A stretch of DNA of 64,000 nucleotides from the IMG/VR virus record IMGVR_UViG_3300033076_001354, positions 64,001 through 128,000 of that record; one strand, written 5' to 3'. The translations under genes and the position numbers were made by a program. The DNA comes from a virus. Lineage: Duplodnaviria; Caudoviricetes. Below are positions 17,427 to 25,096 of the stretch, piece by piece (the stretch's first letter is position 1; each line of letters opens with the position of its first letter). The notes under the pieces are model-generated. The model searched no databases, had not been told where the DNA came from, and was given only the letters and a program-made list of their open reading frames with translations.

Positions 17427-18036
17427 ACTTGACTACATCGTAGAATTAAACAGGATTCTAAATGAACTGTTTAAGCATCTTCAAAGCAGGAATCTAGACT
17501 ACGTCTATAGGTTCTATGCTATGCACAACGAAGAAAAGATGCGAAATCGCAACTTCATCGCGATGGAGGCTATAAGGAAGAACTTTAAACAACTAAACAA
17601 CGTCGCGATCGTGAACAGCAGCAGTCCCGTCGCCCTAACACACTTCTTAAAGAAGGAGTACAAATCTTCAGTGACACTGATTTCAGACCACCCGTCTTTT
17701 GAAATGTCGCTGGGATTCTTTCAGAGATTCTTTAAGGCGAACACCATAGTCAAAAGCGTCTTCTTTGAAGACGTCGATCTATCTTCATACGACTTGGTGA
17801 TCTTGTCTGAGTTTGAATACTTGGTTCCTCTCGATATGCTCAAGCACGTTAACTTCGGTGATTCACCTATAATGGCTCTTCAGCATATCCAGCACGTCAA
17901 CGATCACAACAGTCGACACATAGTCATGTGCATCGAAGACTTACTTGAGCTGTGCAACTTTAAGACTCTACTCGACTCAGGCGAGACCCTCAATATAGAC
18001 AATAGGTTCGTCTATCACGCCTTGGGAGTGAAGTGA
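17404..18036 (+). CDS. Hypothetical protein, possibly degenerate Rossmann/methyltransferase fold
   Basis: Alternating beta/alpha pattern, YDLVILSEFEY; no canonical GxG motif. Confidence 0.4.
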   Translation: MFGPGTTELDYIVELNRILNELFKHLQSRNLDYVYRFYAMHNEEKMRNRNFIAMEAIRKNFKQLNNVAIVNSSSPVALTHFLKKEYKSSVTLISDHPSFEMSLGFFQRFFKANTIVKSVFFEDVDLSSYDLVILSEFEYLVPLDMLKHVNFGDSPIMALQHIQHVNDHNSRHIVMCIEDLLELCNFKTLLDSGETLNIDNRFVYHALGVK

Positions 18037-18659
18037 TCCGGAGGAGTCAAGATGATCTTGACGTGCTCGTCGAGCCACCATGGGTCTGCAGCGTGAATGT
18101 ATTTCTCGTTAGCATCTTGCTTTAAGATCTCGTCGACCTGAGGATCTTCCCACGCCATAGGGAAGTCGAGCCAGTGACCGAGCGACTTGATGTATTGGCG
18201 TCTGTACAAGTATAGAAGTTCTTGGCTGATGAAGAAGGGCGGCACCTTCATCCATTGAATGAGCTGAGGCATGTTGCCCCAAGTCGGACCGCCGCGAAGC
18301 CTCGTCTGCTGGTGCGTCAAGATGTTCTTATCTCTGCCTATGACGACCGGTTGAACCTCGATGCCTAGACTCTGACACTTCTCCATGAACTCATAAATCG
18401 GTGGGACTTTAGGCAGCCACTTCTCAATGTATGGGTTGCTGATGCTCGTAACGGCGTACTTCTTGCCGCCCATGATGTTTAAGTCAATCTTATCGATGTT
18501 GTTCCAGTAGTAGTTGAACGGCTCTTTGTAGTGAGGGATGAAGTATCCATCGGGCTTGAGCGCGTCTTTCCAACCGTGAACTTCAGGGTGCATGCTGAAG
18601 ATCTTACCGAAGAGGTGATTGCCCGAACCCTGTGGACCGAATAGAACTATAATCTTCAT
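18015..18659 (-). CDS. Sulfotransferase-like P-loop protein
   Basis: IVLFGPQGSGNHL...HPEV (5'-PSB-like) and VVIGRD (3'-PB-like). Confidence 0.55.
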   Translation of the reverse strand: MKIIVLFGPQGSGNHLFGKIFSMHPEVHGWKDALKPDGYFIPHYKEPFNYYWNNIDKIDLNIMGGKKYAVTSISNPYIEKWLPKVPPIYEFMEKCQSLGIEVQPVVIGRDKNILTHQQTRLRGGPTWGNMPQLIQWMKVPPFFISQELLYLYRRQYIKSLGHWLDFPMAWEDPQVDEILKQDANEKYIHAADPWWLDEHVKIILTPPDHFTPKA

Positions 18660-19411
18660 CAGTTCTTCCTCAGCTCAAAGTAGAGCCTGTTGCCGTTGTC
18701 TTTCTTGAACGACTCAAGCTTACAGTCGTGGATGCTGGCGATCTTATACGCGGTCTCAAAGTCCCATGGATAGATGTCGACCCATGGACCATTCTTGTGC
18801 ACTTCACCGGGATTCGCCCTGACGTAGATCGTGCCTCCGCGCATAGTCAAGTCGATGACTTTCTTGAACCTTGCGTTGATGTCGTCGAAGTCGCCGAAGT
18901 TGATGCTGCCGAAGACGATGACGTGGTCATAGGATTCGTTGGGAACGTTGTAGTCTAGAATGTCTACCATGAAGTCGGCTGAGTTGTTGAAGGCGTCGAT
19001 GCCTACCAAGTTAGGGATCCTAGCTTTAAACTGATTGAACCCACATCCTACGTCGAGGACTGCCTTTGGGTTCGACTTATTGATTCGCTCAACTATGTTC
19101 CATCCGGTGTATTGATACACCTCGGTGCGCGGCTGCCAGATTCCTCCCCAGAACCTAGCGCTGTACTTAGTGTCTATGTCAGCTGTTAGCATAGAGACTG
19201 ACACGCCGTCGATGTTGATGTCTACGTCGAAAGTATCACTGAGCAACGCCATGAACTTCTCCTGCTTCTTTGGAGTCCATGGAAGCGATGAAACTATCGT
19301 GTGCGGATTGATATTTTCATAGACCTCAATATACTTCGGGAGATTGAAGCAGTCTTTCAAGTTTTTCAGAACGAAGTTAAAAATTTTGTGATTCACAATA
19401 AAAATTCCCAT
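18659..19411 (-). CDS. Class I SAM-dependent methyltransferase with N-terminal ACP-like segment (true start may be GTG at 19396)
   Basis: VLDVGCG motif I, GIDA, YDHVIVFGSINFG. Confidence 0.75.
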   Translation of the reverse strand: MGIFIVNHKIFNFVLKNLKDCFNLPKYIEVYENINPHTIVSSLPWTPKKQEKFMALLSDTFDVDINIDGVSVSMLTADIDTKYSARFWGGIWQPRTEVYQYTGWNIVERINKSNPKAVLDVGCGFNQFKARIPNLVGIDAFNNSADFMVDILDYNVPNESYDHVIVFGSINFGDFDDINARFKKVIDLTMRGGTIYVRANPGEVHKNGPWVDIYPWDFETAYKIASIHDCKLESFKKDNGNRLYFELRKN

Positions 19412-19473: not shown

Positions 19474-20214
19474 ATGAAAAAAATGACGACTTATCAAGAC
19501 TGGGGCGACAGCCGCTGGGAATTCACCAAGAGTCAAAGTAAGTGGCACTTTGATCCATCCCGACCTCCGGTTCCCGGTCTAGACAGCTACACACACGTGT
19601 GTAGGTTCGACGCCGACTTTACCGACGCGATCGCCAAGTGTATGCCTCGAGCTAAAGCGAGCAGCTGGAGCAGCAGAAATAATTTCAACGAAAAGATAGC
19701 GGAGCAGGGACTTTATTCCGCGAGCCTTGAGGAGAAAGACCTCATCAGGGCTGGAGCAGATCCTAAACAAGAAGTGTTTCATCGCACGGCGGCCGAGGAC
19801 ATCGACGTCTTTCAAAAGATCGCAGCTTGGCTCGGCATCGATGAGCCGATGATTAAGTTCCACAACCAGACTACTGGTCAGATGCTTCACACTCACTTGG
19901 ACAACTTCGCCGCGCGCCCCGAGCGCGAGAACAGCTTCAAGGAGACTGAGATCGACAAGAACCCCGACATCATGAGAAGGTTCGCAATCATGCTTGCGGA
20001 CTGGGAGCTCGGTCAGATCTTTCAGATCGGCAACGCGAACTTCACCCAGTGGAAAGCGGGCGACTGCATCACTTGGGAATGGAAGGACATGCCGCACAGC
20101 ACGGCTAACATGGGATGGTGGGATCGCCCGATGCTTCAGATCACGGGATACACCACCGACAGAACCAAAGAAGTTCTCGGCGGTGCCGGAAAGAATCTGG
20201 TCGTAAAGATATGA
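19474..20214 (+). CDS. 2OG-Fe(II) dioxygenase
   Basis: HTHLD (HxD) ... PHSTAN ... R-x-x-LQITG distal His/Arg pattern. Confidence 0.65.
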   Translation: MKKMTTYQDWGDSRWEFTKSQSKWHFDPSRPPVPGLDSYTHVCRFDADFTDAIAKCMPRAKASSWSSRNNFNEKIAEQGLYSASLEEKDLIRAGADPKQEVFHRTAAEDIDVFQKIAAWLGIDEPMIKFHNQTTGQMLHTHLDNFAARPERENSFKETEIDKNPDIMRRFAIMLADWELGQIFQIGNANFTQWKAGDCITWEWKDMPHSTANMGWWDRPMLQITGYTTDRTKEVLGGAGKNLVVKI

Positions 20215-20954
20215 ATCAAGTCATCGCCGTCGCTTATATGCCGGGTGCCTATGGCAGCTTTCTCTGTTGGGCACTCGAGAGATTCTCAAAAGTAAGGAAG
20301 TCTTACCACCCACCGGTCACCGATAACCCTCTTCTTCCGGACGGCAGCAGCCACGCCTACGCGAGCTTCTGTAAAGTCAAGCAGGAAGACCAGTTCATCG
20401 ATGGCCTCAACGTTGCCAGAAACTCAGTCGTCCCATGGAACCACAACGTATACGCGGGATGGCCGTGCGGCAAGAGCGAGAACTTACAGAAGACCGTAGA
20501 GAACATAGGTTCTTGGATGAACACGATGGACAGGCTTATAGTGGTAGTTCCTCAGACTCCCGTGGATCATTACATCTGCTACATTAGGAATGAGTTTACC
20601 CTTGACAAAACCCGCTGGTATGATATATTGGGTATTGAAAAAGATGAACAGCTTTACGAGAGAATGATCGAAGACATCGAGGCTGACTACTCGCTCAACG
20701 TCGAAGACCCTAGGATCTTAAAGCTGACGATCTCTGAGATCCTATATGATCCACCGTACGTATTGTTCGGTAAGATCGCCAAGCTCGTGGGTTGGCCTAC
20801 CTGCGACTTTGGTCTCTTTGAGACTACTCTCTATGAGATGAGAAAAAGGCAAGAGAAGTATTTCAATATGATCACTGACGCCAACAAGGGCGACAGCTTA
20901 ACGCAGCGTGCAATAACTAAATTTAGACTGGAGTACAATAATGGATTTAACTAA
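20211..20954 (+). CDS. Sulfotransferase-like/P-loop hypothetical protein (start ATG 20211)
   Basis: VAYMPGAYGSFLCWAL N-terminal loop; ATGA overlap with upstream gene. Confidence 0.4.
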   Translation: MNQVIAVAYMPGAYGSFLCWALERFSKVRKSYHPPVTDNPLLPDGSSHAYASFCKVKQEDQFIDGLNVARNSVVPWNHNVYAGWPCGKSENLQKTVENIGSWMNTMDRLIVVVPQTPVDHYICYIRNEFTLDKTRWYDILGIEKDEQLYERMIEDIEADYSLNVEDPRILKLTISEILYDPPYVLFGKIAKLVGWPTCDFGLFETTLYEMRKRQEKYFNMITDANKGDSLTQRAITKFRLEYNNGFN

Positions 20955-22395
20955 AATCTTTCCGTTGTTCACTCCGGATACGGGCATCACAGTTCTAGCT
21001 GTGTATGCCGCAATCGTGTTCGGACTGACATGGGTATTTGCTAGCGGATACGCTTGGAATAAAGAAAGCTTCTTCGTCGCAAGACGCGAAGTCAGCACGC
21101 TGCAGGGTGCGATGAGCACGGGTGCCGCGTGGATGTGGGCACCGGGAATGTTCATCTCGGCGCAGCAGGCATATATGAACGGACTCGTCGGTTTGTTCTG
21201 GTTCTGTATCGGTAACTTCCTCAGCTTGATCTTGTTCAGTTGGTTCGCCAATCGCCTACGCGATCGCAAGCCCGATGGATTCACGATCTCAGGCTACTTG
21301 AGAGAGAAGTTTGGCAAGCGCGTTCAGGTGCTGTTCATGATCGAACTGCTCTCGCTCGCGGTGTGCAGCTTCGCCATCAACGCGCTGGCAGGAAGCAAGA
21401 GCGTCGAGGTGATCACTGGCATGAGCTACCACACGGTTAGCTTGATCCTCGCGGCGATCGCATTGGTCTATACCATTCGCGGCGGCCTCAAGGCATCCGT
21501 CATCACCGAGATGTTTAAGCTCTCTGTGTTGGTATTGGGTCTTGCGTTCATCGTTCCATGGGCGATCAACACCGCCGGTGGTCTCAGCATCGTCGACCTA
21601 GGACTCGGTGGAATCACCGGCAACGGTCGCGACATCATCGGCACGCCCTTCGCGCTCGGTGTGTTCATGGGCTTCGGCTTCTCCACCGCCATCGGTCACC
21701 TCGGTGCACCTTGGGGAGACAACGCCTTCTATCAGCGCGCCTTCGCAGTTCGTAAAGAGTCCGTGATCAAGGCATTCGTCGGTGGCGCGTTCATCTTCAT
21801 CTTGACGCCGCTGATGACGGGTCTCCTTGGATTCTTGGCCGCTGGTCTCCAGTACCAAGTTCCTAAAGAGCTGCTCGGCTACGTGAACATCCTCACCGTC
21901 GGAAGCCTGCTTCCTTCTTGGGTTGTCGTGCTCTACTTGTTCATGCTGTTCGCAGGCCTCGTGTCTGTGCTTGACTCGCAGCTGAGCTCGGTCAGCAACA
22001 TCTTTGGTCACGATGTCAAGAACTTGGTCGCAGCGGATCAAGACGAAACCAGCAGCATCAAGATCGGTCGCCTTGGTATGATCCTCTTGATCCTTGGCGG
22101 TCTCACCATCGCAAACTGGCCGGGAATGACACTCGTCACGATCTTCCTGTTCTTTGGTATCCTCAGAGCAACCGTTTGGTTCCCTCTCATGTTCAGCCTT
22201 TGGAATGAAAAGCTTGTGAATGAGAAGGGTATGTTCTGGGGTGTGTTGATCGCATACGTGGTTGGATTCACCACCTACGTCTACGGTCAAAACTTCGGAG
22301 GCGGTCCAAACATCGCGGTGCTTGGAACTTGTCTCGCGGTCTTCGGCTCGGGCGCTTTGGCACTCGGCATCACAAGAGTGACAGATGCCCGTTAA
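20941..22395 (+). CDS. Sodium:solute symporter (SSS) family transporter
   Basis: ~13 hydrophobic segments; ESFFVARR, AAWMWA, YTIRGGLKASVITE, FYQRAFA, SVLDSQL motifs. Confidence 0.85.
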   Translation: MDLTKIFPLFTPDTGITVLAVYAAIVFGLTWVFASGYAWNKESFFVARREVSTLQGAMSTGAAWMWAPGMFISAQQAYMNGLVGLFWFCIGNFLSLILFSWFANRLRDRKPDGFTISGYLREKFGKRVQVLFMIELLSLAVCSFAINALAGSKSVEVITGMSYHTVSLILAAIALVYTIRGGLKASVITEMFKLSVLVLGLAFIVPWAINTAGGLSIVDLGLGGITGNGRDIIGTPFALGVFMGFGFSTAIGHLGAPWGDNAFYQRAFAVRKESVIKAFVGGAFIFILTPLMTGLLGFLAAGLQYQVPKELLGYVNILTVGSLLPSWVVVLYLFMLFAGLVSVLDSQLSSVSNIFGHDVKNLVAADQDETSSIKIGRLGMILLILGGLTIANWPGMTLVTIFLFFGILRATVWFPLMFSLWNEKLVNEKGMFWGVLIAYVVGFTTYVYGQNFGGGPNIAVLGTCLAVFGSGALALGITRVTDAR

Positions 22396-22846
22396 GAAGA
22401 TCTTAATAATGGGCTTGCCGGGATCGGGAAAAACGACTCTGGCAAGAGCCTTGGCACCAAAGCTCGGTGCGGTTCACTGGAACGCGGATGCAGTAAGGGC
22501 TGAGATAAACTCTCACCTCGGCTTCAGCGAGAAAGACCGCATCGAGCAGGCGCGAAGGATGGGGTGGCTCTGTGATCAAGTCGTCAAGGCTGGTCACTGG
22601 GCCATCGCCGACTTCGTGTGTCCGACCAAAGAGACGCGGGACGCTTTCGGCGAATGCATCACCATCTGGGTCGACACTATAAAAGAGGGTAGGTTCGAAG
22701 ATACAAACAAGTTGTTTGAGCCGCCCGTTAAATACGACTACAAGGTGACTGAACAGAACTCAGACTTCTGGGCTAAGTTCTTAGCGGAAGACCTTGACTT
22801 CTATGAGAAGCCTACCTTCTTTAAAGCCATATTAAAGGGTTTGTGA
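22385..22846 (+). CDS. cysC: Adenylylsulfate (APS) kinase-like protein
   Basis: GLPGSGKTT Walker A, DAVR, LGFSEKDRIEQARR, FVCP, FEPP match CysC motifs. Confidence 0.7.
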   Translation: MPVKKILIMGLPGSGKTTLARALAPKLGAVHWNADAVRAEINSHLGFSEKDRIEQARRMGWLCDQVVKAGHWAIADFVCPTKETRDAFGECITIWVDTIKEGRFEDTNKLFEPPVKYDYKVTEQNSDFWAKFLAEDLDFYEKPTFFKAILKGL

Positions 22847-23196
22847 TGTTTGATTATAACAAGCCGACCGTGCAGATGTTGGGCAGGTACCAACCGTGGC
22901 ACGCCGGACACCATGAATTGTTTAAGCGCGCTTACGCGAAGACCGGACAAGTCTGCATCATGGTTAGAGACGTCGACGAAGCTTTCAACTACAGGGAAGT
23001 GGAGTCGAGGATCATCGACGACCTTTACATACACGGCTATGAAAACGGCGTCGACTTCATCGTGCTTCGTGTACCAAACATCGTCAACATCACTTATGGT
23101 CGCGACGTTGGGTATAAGATCGAGCAGGAGCACCTAGGTGAAGAGATCGAGAGCATCTCAGCCACGAAGATTCGCAGAGAGATGGGAATCGAATAG
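22843..23196 (+). CDS. HxGH nucleotidyltransferase (cytidylyltransferase-like)
   Basis: GRYQPWHAGH and ISATKIR motifs. Confidence 0.75.
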   Translation: MMFDYNKPTVQMLGRYQPWHAGHHELFKRAYAKTGQVCIMVRDVDEAFNYREVESRIIDDLYIHGYENGVDFIVLRVPNIVNITYGRDVGYKIEQEHLGEEIESISATKIRREMGIE

Positions 23197-23200
23197 GTGA

Positions 23201-23815
23201 ATGCATAAGTACATATTCATCGCCGGCGCGCCGGGATCCGGATGGAGCAGGGTCGCGCTGAGCATACACAATAGTCCAAGCATTGACTACAGCGACTGGT
23301 CGAAAGACCAGTCGTGGACTTTTATAAACGACAAGAATCTAGAAGAAAAAAGCTATCACTCCGGCGCTTACTTTGGACCCGATCAAAAATACGGAAAGAA
23401 ATTCGATCGTCTCGATGAATTAACTAAAGACGAGATCGAAGAAGAGTTTGCCCGCCCATTCAAGGGATCCGGCACTAAGATAATAAAGTGCCACGACTTT
23501 GCTTATCAACTCGACTTTATAAAAGAACACTGGCCTGATTGTCCTATAATAACTTGTCATAGGCCGACTGAAATATGCTATAGTTGGTGGATGTATGTCG
23601 GAGGTGCTGACATAGCTTTCCCGTCTTATAAAATGTTGAAGACGATTGATCCCAAGAAATACATGGACAAGTGCAACCAAGGGATAGAGAATTTCTTGGC
23701 AGAGAATAAAACGATCGGGCTTGAAAACAACATTGAGCTGTGTGAGATCTTAGAGCTCGACTATCCTAAAAATATAATCTACTTTGACCACGCGAACGTA
23801 TGTATAAAGGTTTGA
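23201..23815 (+). CDS. Sulfotransferase-like protein
   Basis: YIFIAGAPGSGWS, IIKCH, CHRP; paralog of 24449. Confidence 0.5.
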   Translation: MHKYIFIAGAPGSGWSRVALSIHNSPSIDYSDWSKDQSWTFINDKNLEEKSYHSGAYFGPDQKYGKKFDRLDELTKDEIEEEFARPFKGSGTKIIKCHDFAYQLDFIKEHWPDCPIITCHRPTEICYSWWMYVGGADIAFPSYKMLKTIDPKKYMDKCNQGIENFLAENKTIGLENNIELCEILELDYPKNIIYFDHANVCIKV

Positions 23816-23816
23816 T

Positions 23817-24449
23817 ATGGAAAAGATCTTCTCCCTAATCAAAGAAGCCAACGATGAAACTCTATGGATGTTTTCCAGAGACGTTCACGACCTCATACTC
23901 GAGAAGTACTACAGCACGTATTGGCCCGACGTTCCCAATGGCTTCGACGAAAGTAAGACCAAGTCGATCGAGATGATCGTCAACCTACACGAATGTAAGA
24001 ACATACTCGACGTCGGATGCGGCTACAATCACTTCAAAGATAAGTTCCCCGATGCAAAGTTCACCAGCATCGAGCCGTACATCGACGGTGCAGACTATAA
24101 GATGACTGTGACTGAGTACCAACGAAACTTTCCGGATCGCCAGTACGACTGCGTCATGGCTCTTGGTTCGATCAACTTTGGTCCCAAGGCAAAGATCCTT
24201 GAAGAAGTCGAGGCGATGGATAAGCTCACTCGACCAGAAGGCATTCAAATCTGGCGCGTCAATCCTAGGGACAAACCCTTCGTCGACGACAGATTTCCCA
24301 TATCAGAACTCATTCAATACTACGGTTGGGATGAGCCGTTCATTCGCCACATCAGCGAAGTGTACAACTATAGGTTGATCGAATACAAAGAAGAGATGAA
24401 CTACTCCAACGATCGAAGGATCTTTTTTATCATGAAGAAAGGCCTGTAA
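23817..24449 (+). CDS. Class I SAM-dependent methyltransferase, paralog of 18659
   Basis: ILDVGCGYNHFK, YDCVMALGSINFG, RVNP. Confidence 0.75.
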   Translation: MEKIFSLIKEANDETLWMFSRDVHDLILEKYYSTYWPDVPNGFDESKTKSIEMIVNLHECKNILDVGCGYNHFKDKFPDAKFTSIEPYIDGADYKMTVTEYQRNFPDRQYDCVMALGSINFGPKAKILEEVEAMDKLTRPEGIQIWRVNPRDKPFVDDRFPISELIQYYGWDEPFIRHISEVYNYRLIEYKEEMNYSNDRRIFFIMKKGL

Positions 24450-25096
24450 TGAAGTACATATTCATGGCCGGCGCACCCGGATCAAAGTGGAGCTCGGTCG
24501 CCCGCAGCATCTACTTCAGCAGCGACATCAATCAGAGCGACTTCTCGCTCAATCGCAGGTACTTCCACGACGCGTCGGGTAAGCGCCAGCTCATGCACCT
24601 TGGGTCCTACTTCGATCCGGGAATGGAGTTCGGAAACGAGTTCAACATGCTCAACCTATTAAGCAAAGAAGAATGCGAGCAAGAGTTCGATCGACCGTTC
24701 ACCCACGACATGGGAACAAAGATTATAAAGAGCCACTTCTTTACGTACTACTTAGATTATCTCAAAGAAACGTGGAAAGACCCGATAGTCTTGGTAAGTC
24801 GTGACTCGGACGCCTGTATAGGGTGGTGGATCAGGTGCGGTCACTTTAACATCACCTATCCTAAGTACGACTTCTATAAAAACATCGACGATATGGTCAA
24901 GTACGTCGATGCCCAGAATAAGTTCATAAAGAGGTTCATCGATGAGAACGAGACCCTTCAGGTATGGAACAGCCTCGAGCTGGCCCAAGCCCTAGGAATC
25001 AACGACGAGGGCGTCTACCACCAAGACTACAAGCGAAACGACATCAAGGTCCACCTCTACTGGGGCAAATACGACGGGAGTCAGGCTTTCCTCTGA
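24449..25096 (+). CDS. Sulfotransferase-like protein
   Basis: YIFMAGAPGSKWSSV, IIKSH, LVSRD. Confidence 0.5.
   Translation: MKYIFMAGAPGSKWSSVARSIYFSSDINQSDFSLNRRYFHDASGKRQLMHLGSYFDPGMEFGNEFNMLNLLSKEECEQEFDRPFTHDMGTKIIKSHFFTYYLDYLKETWKDPIVLVSRDSDACIGWWIRCGHFNITYPKYDFYKNIDDMVKYVDAQNKFIKRFIDENETLQVWNSLELAQALGINDEGVYHQDYKRNDIKVHLYWGKYDGSQAFL

Follow-up and report, generated by a model that had tools for sequence, protein, structure and literature searches.

3'-Phosphoadenosine 5'-phosphosulfate (PAPS) is synthesized in two steps, the adenylylation of sulfate by ATP sulfurylase to adenosine 5'-phosphosulfate (APS) and the 3'-phosphorylation of APS by APS kinase. Rhizobia possess a dedicated PAPS supply, NodP/NodQ, for the sulfotransferase NodH. 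Bacterial operons predicted to combine hydroxylase, methyltransferase, sulfotransferase, and PAPS synthetase genes, acting on tail-collar/collagen-like proteins, were described by Iyer et al. in 2010 (PMC2938197), and the function of phage sulfotransferases has been called unclear (PMC10580990). Here, we describe a gene island of a T4-like phage, located in a 64,000-nucleotide stretch (the window) that spans positions 64001 to 128000 of the virus record IMGVR_UViG_3300033076_001354 (157.6 kb, 98% complete). A transporter, an APS-kinase-like kinase, and a very small nucleotidyltransferase (mini transferase) lie there inside a cluster of sulfotransferase-like genes.

We propose that kinase and mini transferase form a two-subunit "mini PAPS synthase" feeding sulfotransferases, a reading to which we assign a probability of roughly 0.55. 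The mini transferase would adenylylate sulfate (ATP + sulfate -> APS + PPi), the kinase, which lacks a lid helix, would then phosphorylate the 3'-OH of APS to give PAPS, and the PAPS would be used by sulfotransferase-fold proteins, of which the island has three or four, probably to decorate fiber/virion proteins or glycans. The transporter, co-transcribed here, may bring in sulfate or some other small solute for these enzymes, which is the weakest step. The domain identities, the fusion in homologs, the linkage to sulfotransferases, and the lack of a canonical ATP sulfurylase in the phage and the tested carriers are observed; both catalytic activities and the sulfation target are predicted.

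With bifunctional PAPS synthases (PAPSS1/2 of animals; Sat-CysC fusions, for example Aquifex 2gks), the pair shares the proposed chemistry, and its fused homologs have the kinase-then-transferase order of PAPSS; the kinase domain is homologous to APS kinase. By analogy with NodPQ/NodH, the pair likewise appears tied to nearby sulfotransferases. It differs from known PAPS synthases in an adenylyltransferase of ~115 aa (against a Sat catalytic domain of >200 aa plus accessory domains) that falls outside PF01747 and CysD/CysN, in a kinase without the lid helix, and in halves encoded as separate genes, its activity being predicted only. Like the operons of Iyer et al. (PMC2938197), the island joins oxygenase-like (no family match), methyltransferase, and sulfotransferase genes with a putative PAPS supply and fiber-type proteins, but those operons carry canonical PAPS synthetases, whereas the island holds the mini pair and a transporter. 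No description of such a phage or SAR11 enzyme was found in the published literature. If correct, the reading would add a very small new enzyme class for a textbook reaction, sulfate activation; explain how PAPS-dependent sulfotransferases can run without Sat/CysDN in the most abundant bacteria of the sea and in many of the phages that infect them; make phage sulfotransferase function directly testable, with sulfation of fibers or host surface glycans as candidates; and offer a ~270-residue PAPS synthase as a compact tool for biotechnological sulfation.

Kinase and mini transferase

The open reading frames (ORFs) of transporter, kinase, and transferase are co-oriented and overlapping (20941 to 23196), exactly as placed by a preliminary description of the window, which had also noted their sulfotransferase-like flanks. 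That description had pointed to fused kinase-transferase homologs as informative, and these were found widely, in kinase-then-transferase order. Longer relatives of the transferase (206 aa or more) numbered 5,807; among the best 120 (211 to 345 aa, the C-terminal domain 54 to 72% identical to the transferase), nearly all had an APS-kinase-like domain in front. By homology, kinase and transferase are the split version of a two-domain protein that is very common, and its occurrence as a fusion in thousands of proteins argues for the catalysis of consecutive reaction steps. Pattern scans, whose counts are lower bounds, found the kinase-then-transferase order in at least 594 viral contigs and bacterial carriers in at least 582 species genomes, mostly of SAR11, SAR86, and SAR116; complete Pelagibacter chromosomes are among these. 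The two-gene form is commoner at bacterial loci (61 split, 16 fused), and isolated phages of the Sano/Salvo group also carry the fusion. A conserved ORF of ~75 aa (clusters c39/c51) directly follows the fused gene at several viral loci (L019, L024, L033, L035, L036, L058, and L068).

The kinase passed the cut-off of PF01583 (1.5e-15; 58 bits, cut-off 21.1), with the APS-kinase match confined to its N-terminal two-thirds. When a profile of the kinase family was searched against PDB, the top matches were all APS kinases (2yvu at 1.2e-13 and sixteen others with E values of 1e-9 or lower), the alignments covering the N-terminal ~85 positions, and no dephospho-CoA kinase was returned at E 0.001. 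The protein holds the APS-kinase P-loop (GLPGSGKT) and, in NADAVR, LGFSEKDR, and FVCP, the motif residues of that family (Asp and Arg of LDGD-x-R, Phe of LGF, Arg of DR, Pro of ISP), with Q replacing N. The P-loop is invariant among 37 family sequences, as are D35, R38, F47, R52, Q55, P80, and R85, positions that we take to be Mg/APS contacts in APS-kinase structures. We consider it probable that the kinase acts on APS.

Kinases of this type also occur alone. Ralstonia phage RsoM2USA has one that is 64% identical to the window kinase, and in Ralstonia phage phiRSL1 (ORF232 to ORF238) this kinase domain is joined to another C terminus in a protein of 231 aa, whose neighbors are a sulfotransferase-like gene, an NTP transferase, an APH-type kinase, and a pair of TET-associated glycosyltransferases. 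Neither the C-terminal portion of phiRSL1 ORF238 nor the ORF that follows the kinase of RsoM2USA is transferase-like.

Given the stop/start context TGATG, the ATG at 22846 is the likelier start of the transferase. The protein matched PF01467 (2e-4), and its best named NCBIfam match was the archaeal-type nicotinamide mononucleotide (NMN) adenylyltransferase (NMNAT; 5e-6, 26.2 against a cut-off of 127). A single viral family, phrog_10255 (230 positions), matches the kinase with its first half (2e-30) and the transferase with its second half (8.5e-29). The motifs GRYQPWHAGH and SATKIRR correspond to the NadM-type GRxQPxHxGH and SxTxIRR. Sat-type ATP sulfurylases carry the motifs HxxH, QxRN, and GRDHAG; in the transferase, HAGH is present and is preceded by the NMNAT-type GRYQP instead of QxRN, PF01747 (Sat) gave no match, and the family has an invariant GRD, a possible counterpart of the Sat GRDHAG. 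The transferase ends 9 residues after SATKIRR and is ~50 residues shorter than NMNATs (~170 aa). The NPF loop is missing in the window copy and present in most homologs, and the full-length NadM pattern (NPF loop, C-terminal helices) is not found. In addition, R42 (G, S, or A in aligned NMNATs) and R87 (of the GRD motif) are invariant across the family and may serve to hold sulfate or a similar small dianion. In comparison with the NadM/archaeal NMNATs (2qjt, 1f9a, and 1ej2), then, the window protein is shorter, ends after the ISxT motif, has no NPF loop, and carries the family-invariant R42/R87, and its domain family, unlike theirs, occurs in fusion with an APS-kinase-type domain and shows linkage to sulfotransferases.

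An AlphaFold2 (AF2) model of the transferase reached a confidence (pLDDT) of 88. Foldseek searches of PDB with the AF2 models of the transferase and of a sulfotransferase-fold neighbor gave no match at E <= 0.001; the rows returned were mixed HxGH transferases for the one model and sulfotransferases and P-loop kinases for the other. By its motifs and nearest relatives, the transferase is a shortened NMNAT-type domain derived from NadM and not a reduced Sat. The proposal that the 117-aa HxGH protein is a stripped-down ATP sulfurylase is accordingly kept for the predicted activity, on the strength of context and phyletic pattern, and given up for the ancestry, which is that of NMNATs. We put the chance that the transferase makes APS at even. 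A wider claim falls slightly short of even odds: the NMNAT-derived domain of ~115 residues would represent a minimal ATP sulfurylase of a new class, producing PAPS together with the lid-less kinase in many aquatic phages and filling the gap in sulfate activation of SAR11/SAR86/SAR116.

Sulfotransferase linkage and bacterial carriers

Neighbors of the fused gene were clustered in 80 viral loci. The commonest neighbor family was a Pfam-positive sulfotransferase (PF13469, 5.9e-18; PF00685, 3.8e-10), which occurred at 36 of these loci, upstream every time and directly adjoining in 19. At ten further loci, the fusion is preceded by a methyltransferase, a 319-aa protein, homologs of the window genes at 23201 and 19474, and sometimes one of the gene at 18015, the same families that make up the window island. 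A Sulfotransfer_2 protein (1.1e-8) was found at three more loci. When the count is limited to the 57 loci having six or more upstream genes, a recognizable sulfotransferase or sulfotransferase-like gene is present at 35. As a control, the hidden Markov model (HMM) built from the Pfam-positive phage sulfotransferases detected none at 80 viral loci of the transporter family.

The same HMM did not detect the sulfotransferase-like proteins of the window. In profile-profile comparison (hhalign) with the Pfam-positive phage cluster, family f68 (18015 to 18659) aligned with a probability of 72% (E 3e-5, 104 columns) and family f17 weakly (2%). The f17 protein directly after the transferase shows the sulfotransferase fold, its fold matches being ranked with VIA-align, and motifs of the 5'-phosphosulfate-binding (5'-PSB) and 3'-phosphate-binding (3'-PB) types. 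RCC1-repeat genes accompany some of the loci: seven in tandem (~370 to 390 aa each) directly upstream of the fused gene at L059, L062, and L066, and two, followed by a 566-aa sulfotransferase, at L007/L013. RCC1-repeat proteins are possible sulfation substrates.

Sat and CysD were looked for in five bacterial carriers, which include two complete Pelagibacter chromosomes. PF01747 and CysD were absent from all five, and the family's own kinase was the sole APS-kinase match in four, the fifth (G015) having one more, weak match (23 bits). In the phage, neither Sat (PF01747) nor a gene of the CysD/CysH family (PF01507) is present. Strong Sulfotransfer_3 genes were present in eight of eight carriers (1e-29 to 1e-48, one weak), compared with 2 of 14 control genomes; sulfotransferases have also been reported in the SAR11 hypervariable region (bioRxiv 10.64898/2026.04.03.716430). 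In Pelagibacter, the neighbors of the split pair at L243, L247, and other SAR11 loci are Rieske oxygenase, GcvT-family, MTHFR-like, methyltransferase, enoyl-CoA hydratase, and CoA-binding genes and not sulfotransferases.

Carriers also keep PF01467 (HxGH) genes of CoaD and NadD size, and a housekeeping role of the mini transferase in coenzyme A (CoA) or NAD synthesis is therefore disfavored. This bears on two alternatives. In one, modeled on NadR salvage, the transporter would import nicotinamide riboside (NR), the kinase would convert it to NMN, and the transferase would complete NAD+, reconstituting phage NAD+. The NMNAT-like transferase fits, and NadR too joins an NMNAT to a P-loop kinase, but its domain order is the reverse, the kinase is closest to APS kinases and not to NR kinases, the linkage is to sulfotransferases while that to the transporter is not conserved, and the retained NadD-sized genes speak against it, so that we regard it as highly improbable. 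In the other, a phosphopantetheine adenylyltransferase (PPAT) and a dephospho-CoA 3'-kinase would work with a PanF-like pantothenate importer. With APS kinases ranking first for the kinase profile and no dephospho-CoA kinase reaching E 0.001, a canonical CoaD-sized gene in the carriers, and the sulfotransferase linkage left unexplained, this can hardly be credited.

Several observations weigh against a mini PAPS synthase. The kinase fell far short of the NCBIfam apsK equivalog (TIGR00455; 55.7 bits, cut-off 138.7), and its lid helix (RDxKGLYKKAR type) is absent, alignments ending near residue 90 and ~20 residues missing before DTN..F..P. With the transferase profile, PDB returned NadM NMNATs (2qjt, 2.4e-7; 1f9a, 1.9e-6) and, at E < 10, no chain from an ATP sulfurylase, and VIA-align ranked NMNAT, PPAT, and ATP sulfurylase folds as tied, without discrimination. 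About 40% of the well-flanked viral loci have no recognizable sulfotransferase, the fusion of the Sano-like phage examined (L002) is surrounded by genes of DNA metabolism, none of those nearby being annotated as a sulfotransferase, and the neighbors of the pair in SAR11 are one-carbon and CoA-type genes. Finally, the closest relatives of the window island are without the pair in the stretches recovered. In these (L093 to L097 and L106; transporters 83 to 85% identical), the f17 gene follows the transporter directly in otherwise syntenic islands. The order of the window (transporter, kinase, transferase, f17) recurs at L098 and L100, a point in favor of the reading. Present at this position in some islands and absent in others, the pair thus forms a variable cassette. 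It was found in 3 of 15 transporter-bearing viral records, which are fragments 14 to 64% complete, and its absence from them is therefore uninformative.

In another reading, the kinase alone would serve sulfate activation, turning host APS into PAPS, and the transferase would do another job, such as NMNAT activity for NAD+ or the adenylylation of another phospho-substrate. In favor are the NadM/archaeal NMNATs as nearest sequence relatives of the transferase, which has GRxQPxHxGH and ISxT and, as a family, mostly an NPF loop, and the stand-alone kinases of RsoM2USA and phiRSL1. The fusion of the domains in thousands of proteins argues against it, as do carriers that were found without another APS source yet with sulfotransferases and that retain NadD-sized genes, and a transferase shorter than NMNATs whose window copy has no NPF loop; we judge this division of labor unlikely. 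Because of the sulfotransferase linkage, the carriers without Sat/CysD, and the kinase motifs, the mini PAPS synthase is, though unproven, well supported by context. The preliminary suggestion of such a module agrees with context and phyletic pattern and finds no backing in homology to ATP sulfurylases.

The transporter

The transporter was described beforehand as a full-length member of the sodium:solute symporter (SSS) family with ~13 transmembrane (TM) segments, and both near-complete coverage of PF00474 (3.3e-26; 92.6 bits, cut-off 22.8; profile positions 1 to 405 of 406) and hydropathy (~13 hydrophobic segments) bear this out. It reached no cut-off of a characterized subfamily in NCBIfam. 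The subfamily matches phrog_20720 (2.4e-89) and is recurrent in phages (at least 107 IMG/VR viral contigs). Close homologs were absent from eight SAR11/SAR86/SAR116 genomes, where only distant SSS members (~1e-13) were found. The nearest solved chain was the DUR3 urea/H+ symporter (4e-22), and the choline transporter CHT1 is also among the nearest solved transporters. With DUR3-type SSS proteins (9vim, 9j7c), the window transporter has in common the PF00474 fold and ~13 TM segments; it differs in belonging to a largely phage-borne subfamily with sulfotransferase-like and methyltransferase partners or, in distant members, IbrA/IbrB-like ones. A 762-aa homolog (P0270) carries 290 extra C-terminal residues without a family-HMM or Pfam match.

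For 80 viral copies of the transporter, partners lying no more than 10 kb away were counted. Homologs of the sulfotransferase-like gene at 18015 occurred at 59 loci, methyltransferases at 57, homologs of the gene at 19474 at 33, and homologs of the gene at 23201 at 20, compared with 5 for the kinase and 4 for the mini transferase. Conversely, no transporter was found at the 80 fusion loci. Transporter and kinase-transferase pair do not regularly occur together, and the phage-borne transporter family, whose sulfotransferase-like and methyltransferase partners are fixed, poses a question of its own. At L111/L137, kinase and transferase flank the transporter module.

These counts bear on a Lic-like scheme, in which an alcohol or amine would be imported, phosphorylated by the kinase, and activated as a nucleoside diphosphate derivative by the transferase for use in decoration. 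Three co-oriented, overlapping genes, glycan-modifying genes at some loci without sulfotransferases, the likeness to CHT1, and HxGH-superfamily cytidylyltransferases that act on phospho-alcohols (NMNAT relatives do not) would suit it. Against this stand the rarity of the kinase near the transporter and the absence of the transporter from all 80 kinase-transferase loci, a kinase whose top matches are APS kinases with their motif positions, the strong sulfotransferase linkage, and the lack of a LicD-type transferase among the neighbors scanned. The LicB/LicA/LicC/LicD pattern of choline activation was not found, the kinase being of APS-kinase type and the transferase of HxGH type, and we hold the scheme to be very unlikely.

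Distant members of the transporter family (31 to 45% identity) repeatedly adjoin IbrA/IbrB-like genes (PAPS_reduct with DUF3440, and ParB_N) on phage-like contigs (L009, L253, L254, and L156 to L172). As both types of partner have (P)APS-binding folds, import of sulfate or a sulfur compound is an attractive guess. We know of no SSS member that carries sulfate, and that the phage transporter imports such a compound for the sulfotransferases is, in our estimate, distinctly unlikely.

Genes of the island

The island (Table 1) lies between fiber genes, among them a Tyr-rich repeat fiber, and has a TPST-like neighbor. A DNA search of GenBank phages with the island gave no match. The protein encoded directly upstream of the transporter had no match in Pfam or NCBIfam; a gene of ~244 to 249 aa (cluster c5) precedes the transporter at 15 of the 80 transporter loci, and the two may be counterparts, by position and size only. 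Homologs of the methyltransferase-like protein at 18659 in transporter loci L010 to L012 are 33 to 49% identical to it.

Table 1. Coordinates and assignments of island genes in the window (SAM, S-adenosylmethionine)
Feature	Position	Strand	Remarks
Sulfotransferase-like P-loop protein (f68), most conserved transporter partner	18015..18659	-	59/80 transporter loci
SAM-methyltransferase-like protein (f24), conserved transporter partner	18659..19411	-	Homologs in transporter loci
Conserved island protein, family f13	19474..20214	+	Homologs in 33/80 transporter loci and in block upstream of fused kinase-transferase
P-loop-like protein directly upstream of transporter	20115..20954	+	True start perhaps inner Met at ~20211
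SSS-family (DUR3-like) secondary transporter	20941..22395	+	484 aa, ~13 TM; PF00474, phrog_20720
Lid-less APS-kinase-like P-loop kinase, candidate APS 3'-kinase	22385..22846	+	153 aa; PF01583, phrog_10255 first half
Minimal HxGH/ISxT nucleotidyltransferase, candidate sulfate adenylyltransferase	22843..23196	+	116-117 aa; PF01467, phrog_10255 second half
Sulfotransferase-fold protein, family f17, probable PAPS user	23201..23815	+	Fold
SAM-methyltransferase-like protein, family f24	23817..24449	+	Paralog of 18659-19411 (BLASTP, 7e-18); LDVGCG motif
Second f17 sulfotransferase-like paralog	24449..25096	+	41% identity to 23201-23815 (1e-48)

Upstream of the island genes listed, between 14069 and 18036, several genes of 210 to 250 aa lie on both strands and carry DxD-type motifs. 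They resemble GT-A glycosyltransferases, Pfam giving no match, and two of them are paralogs, 43% identical.

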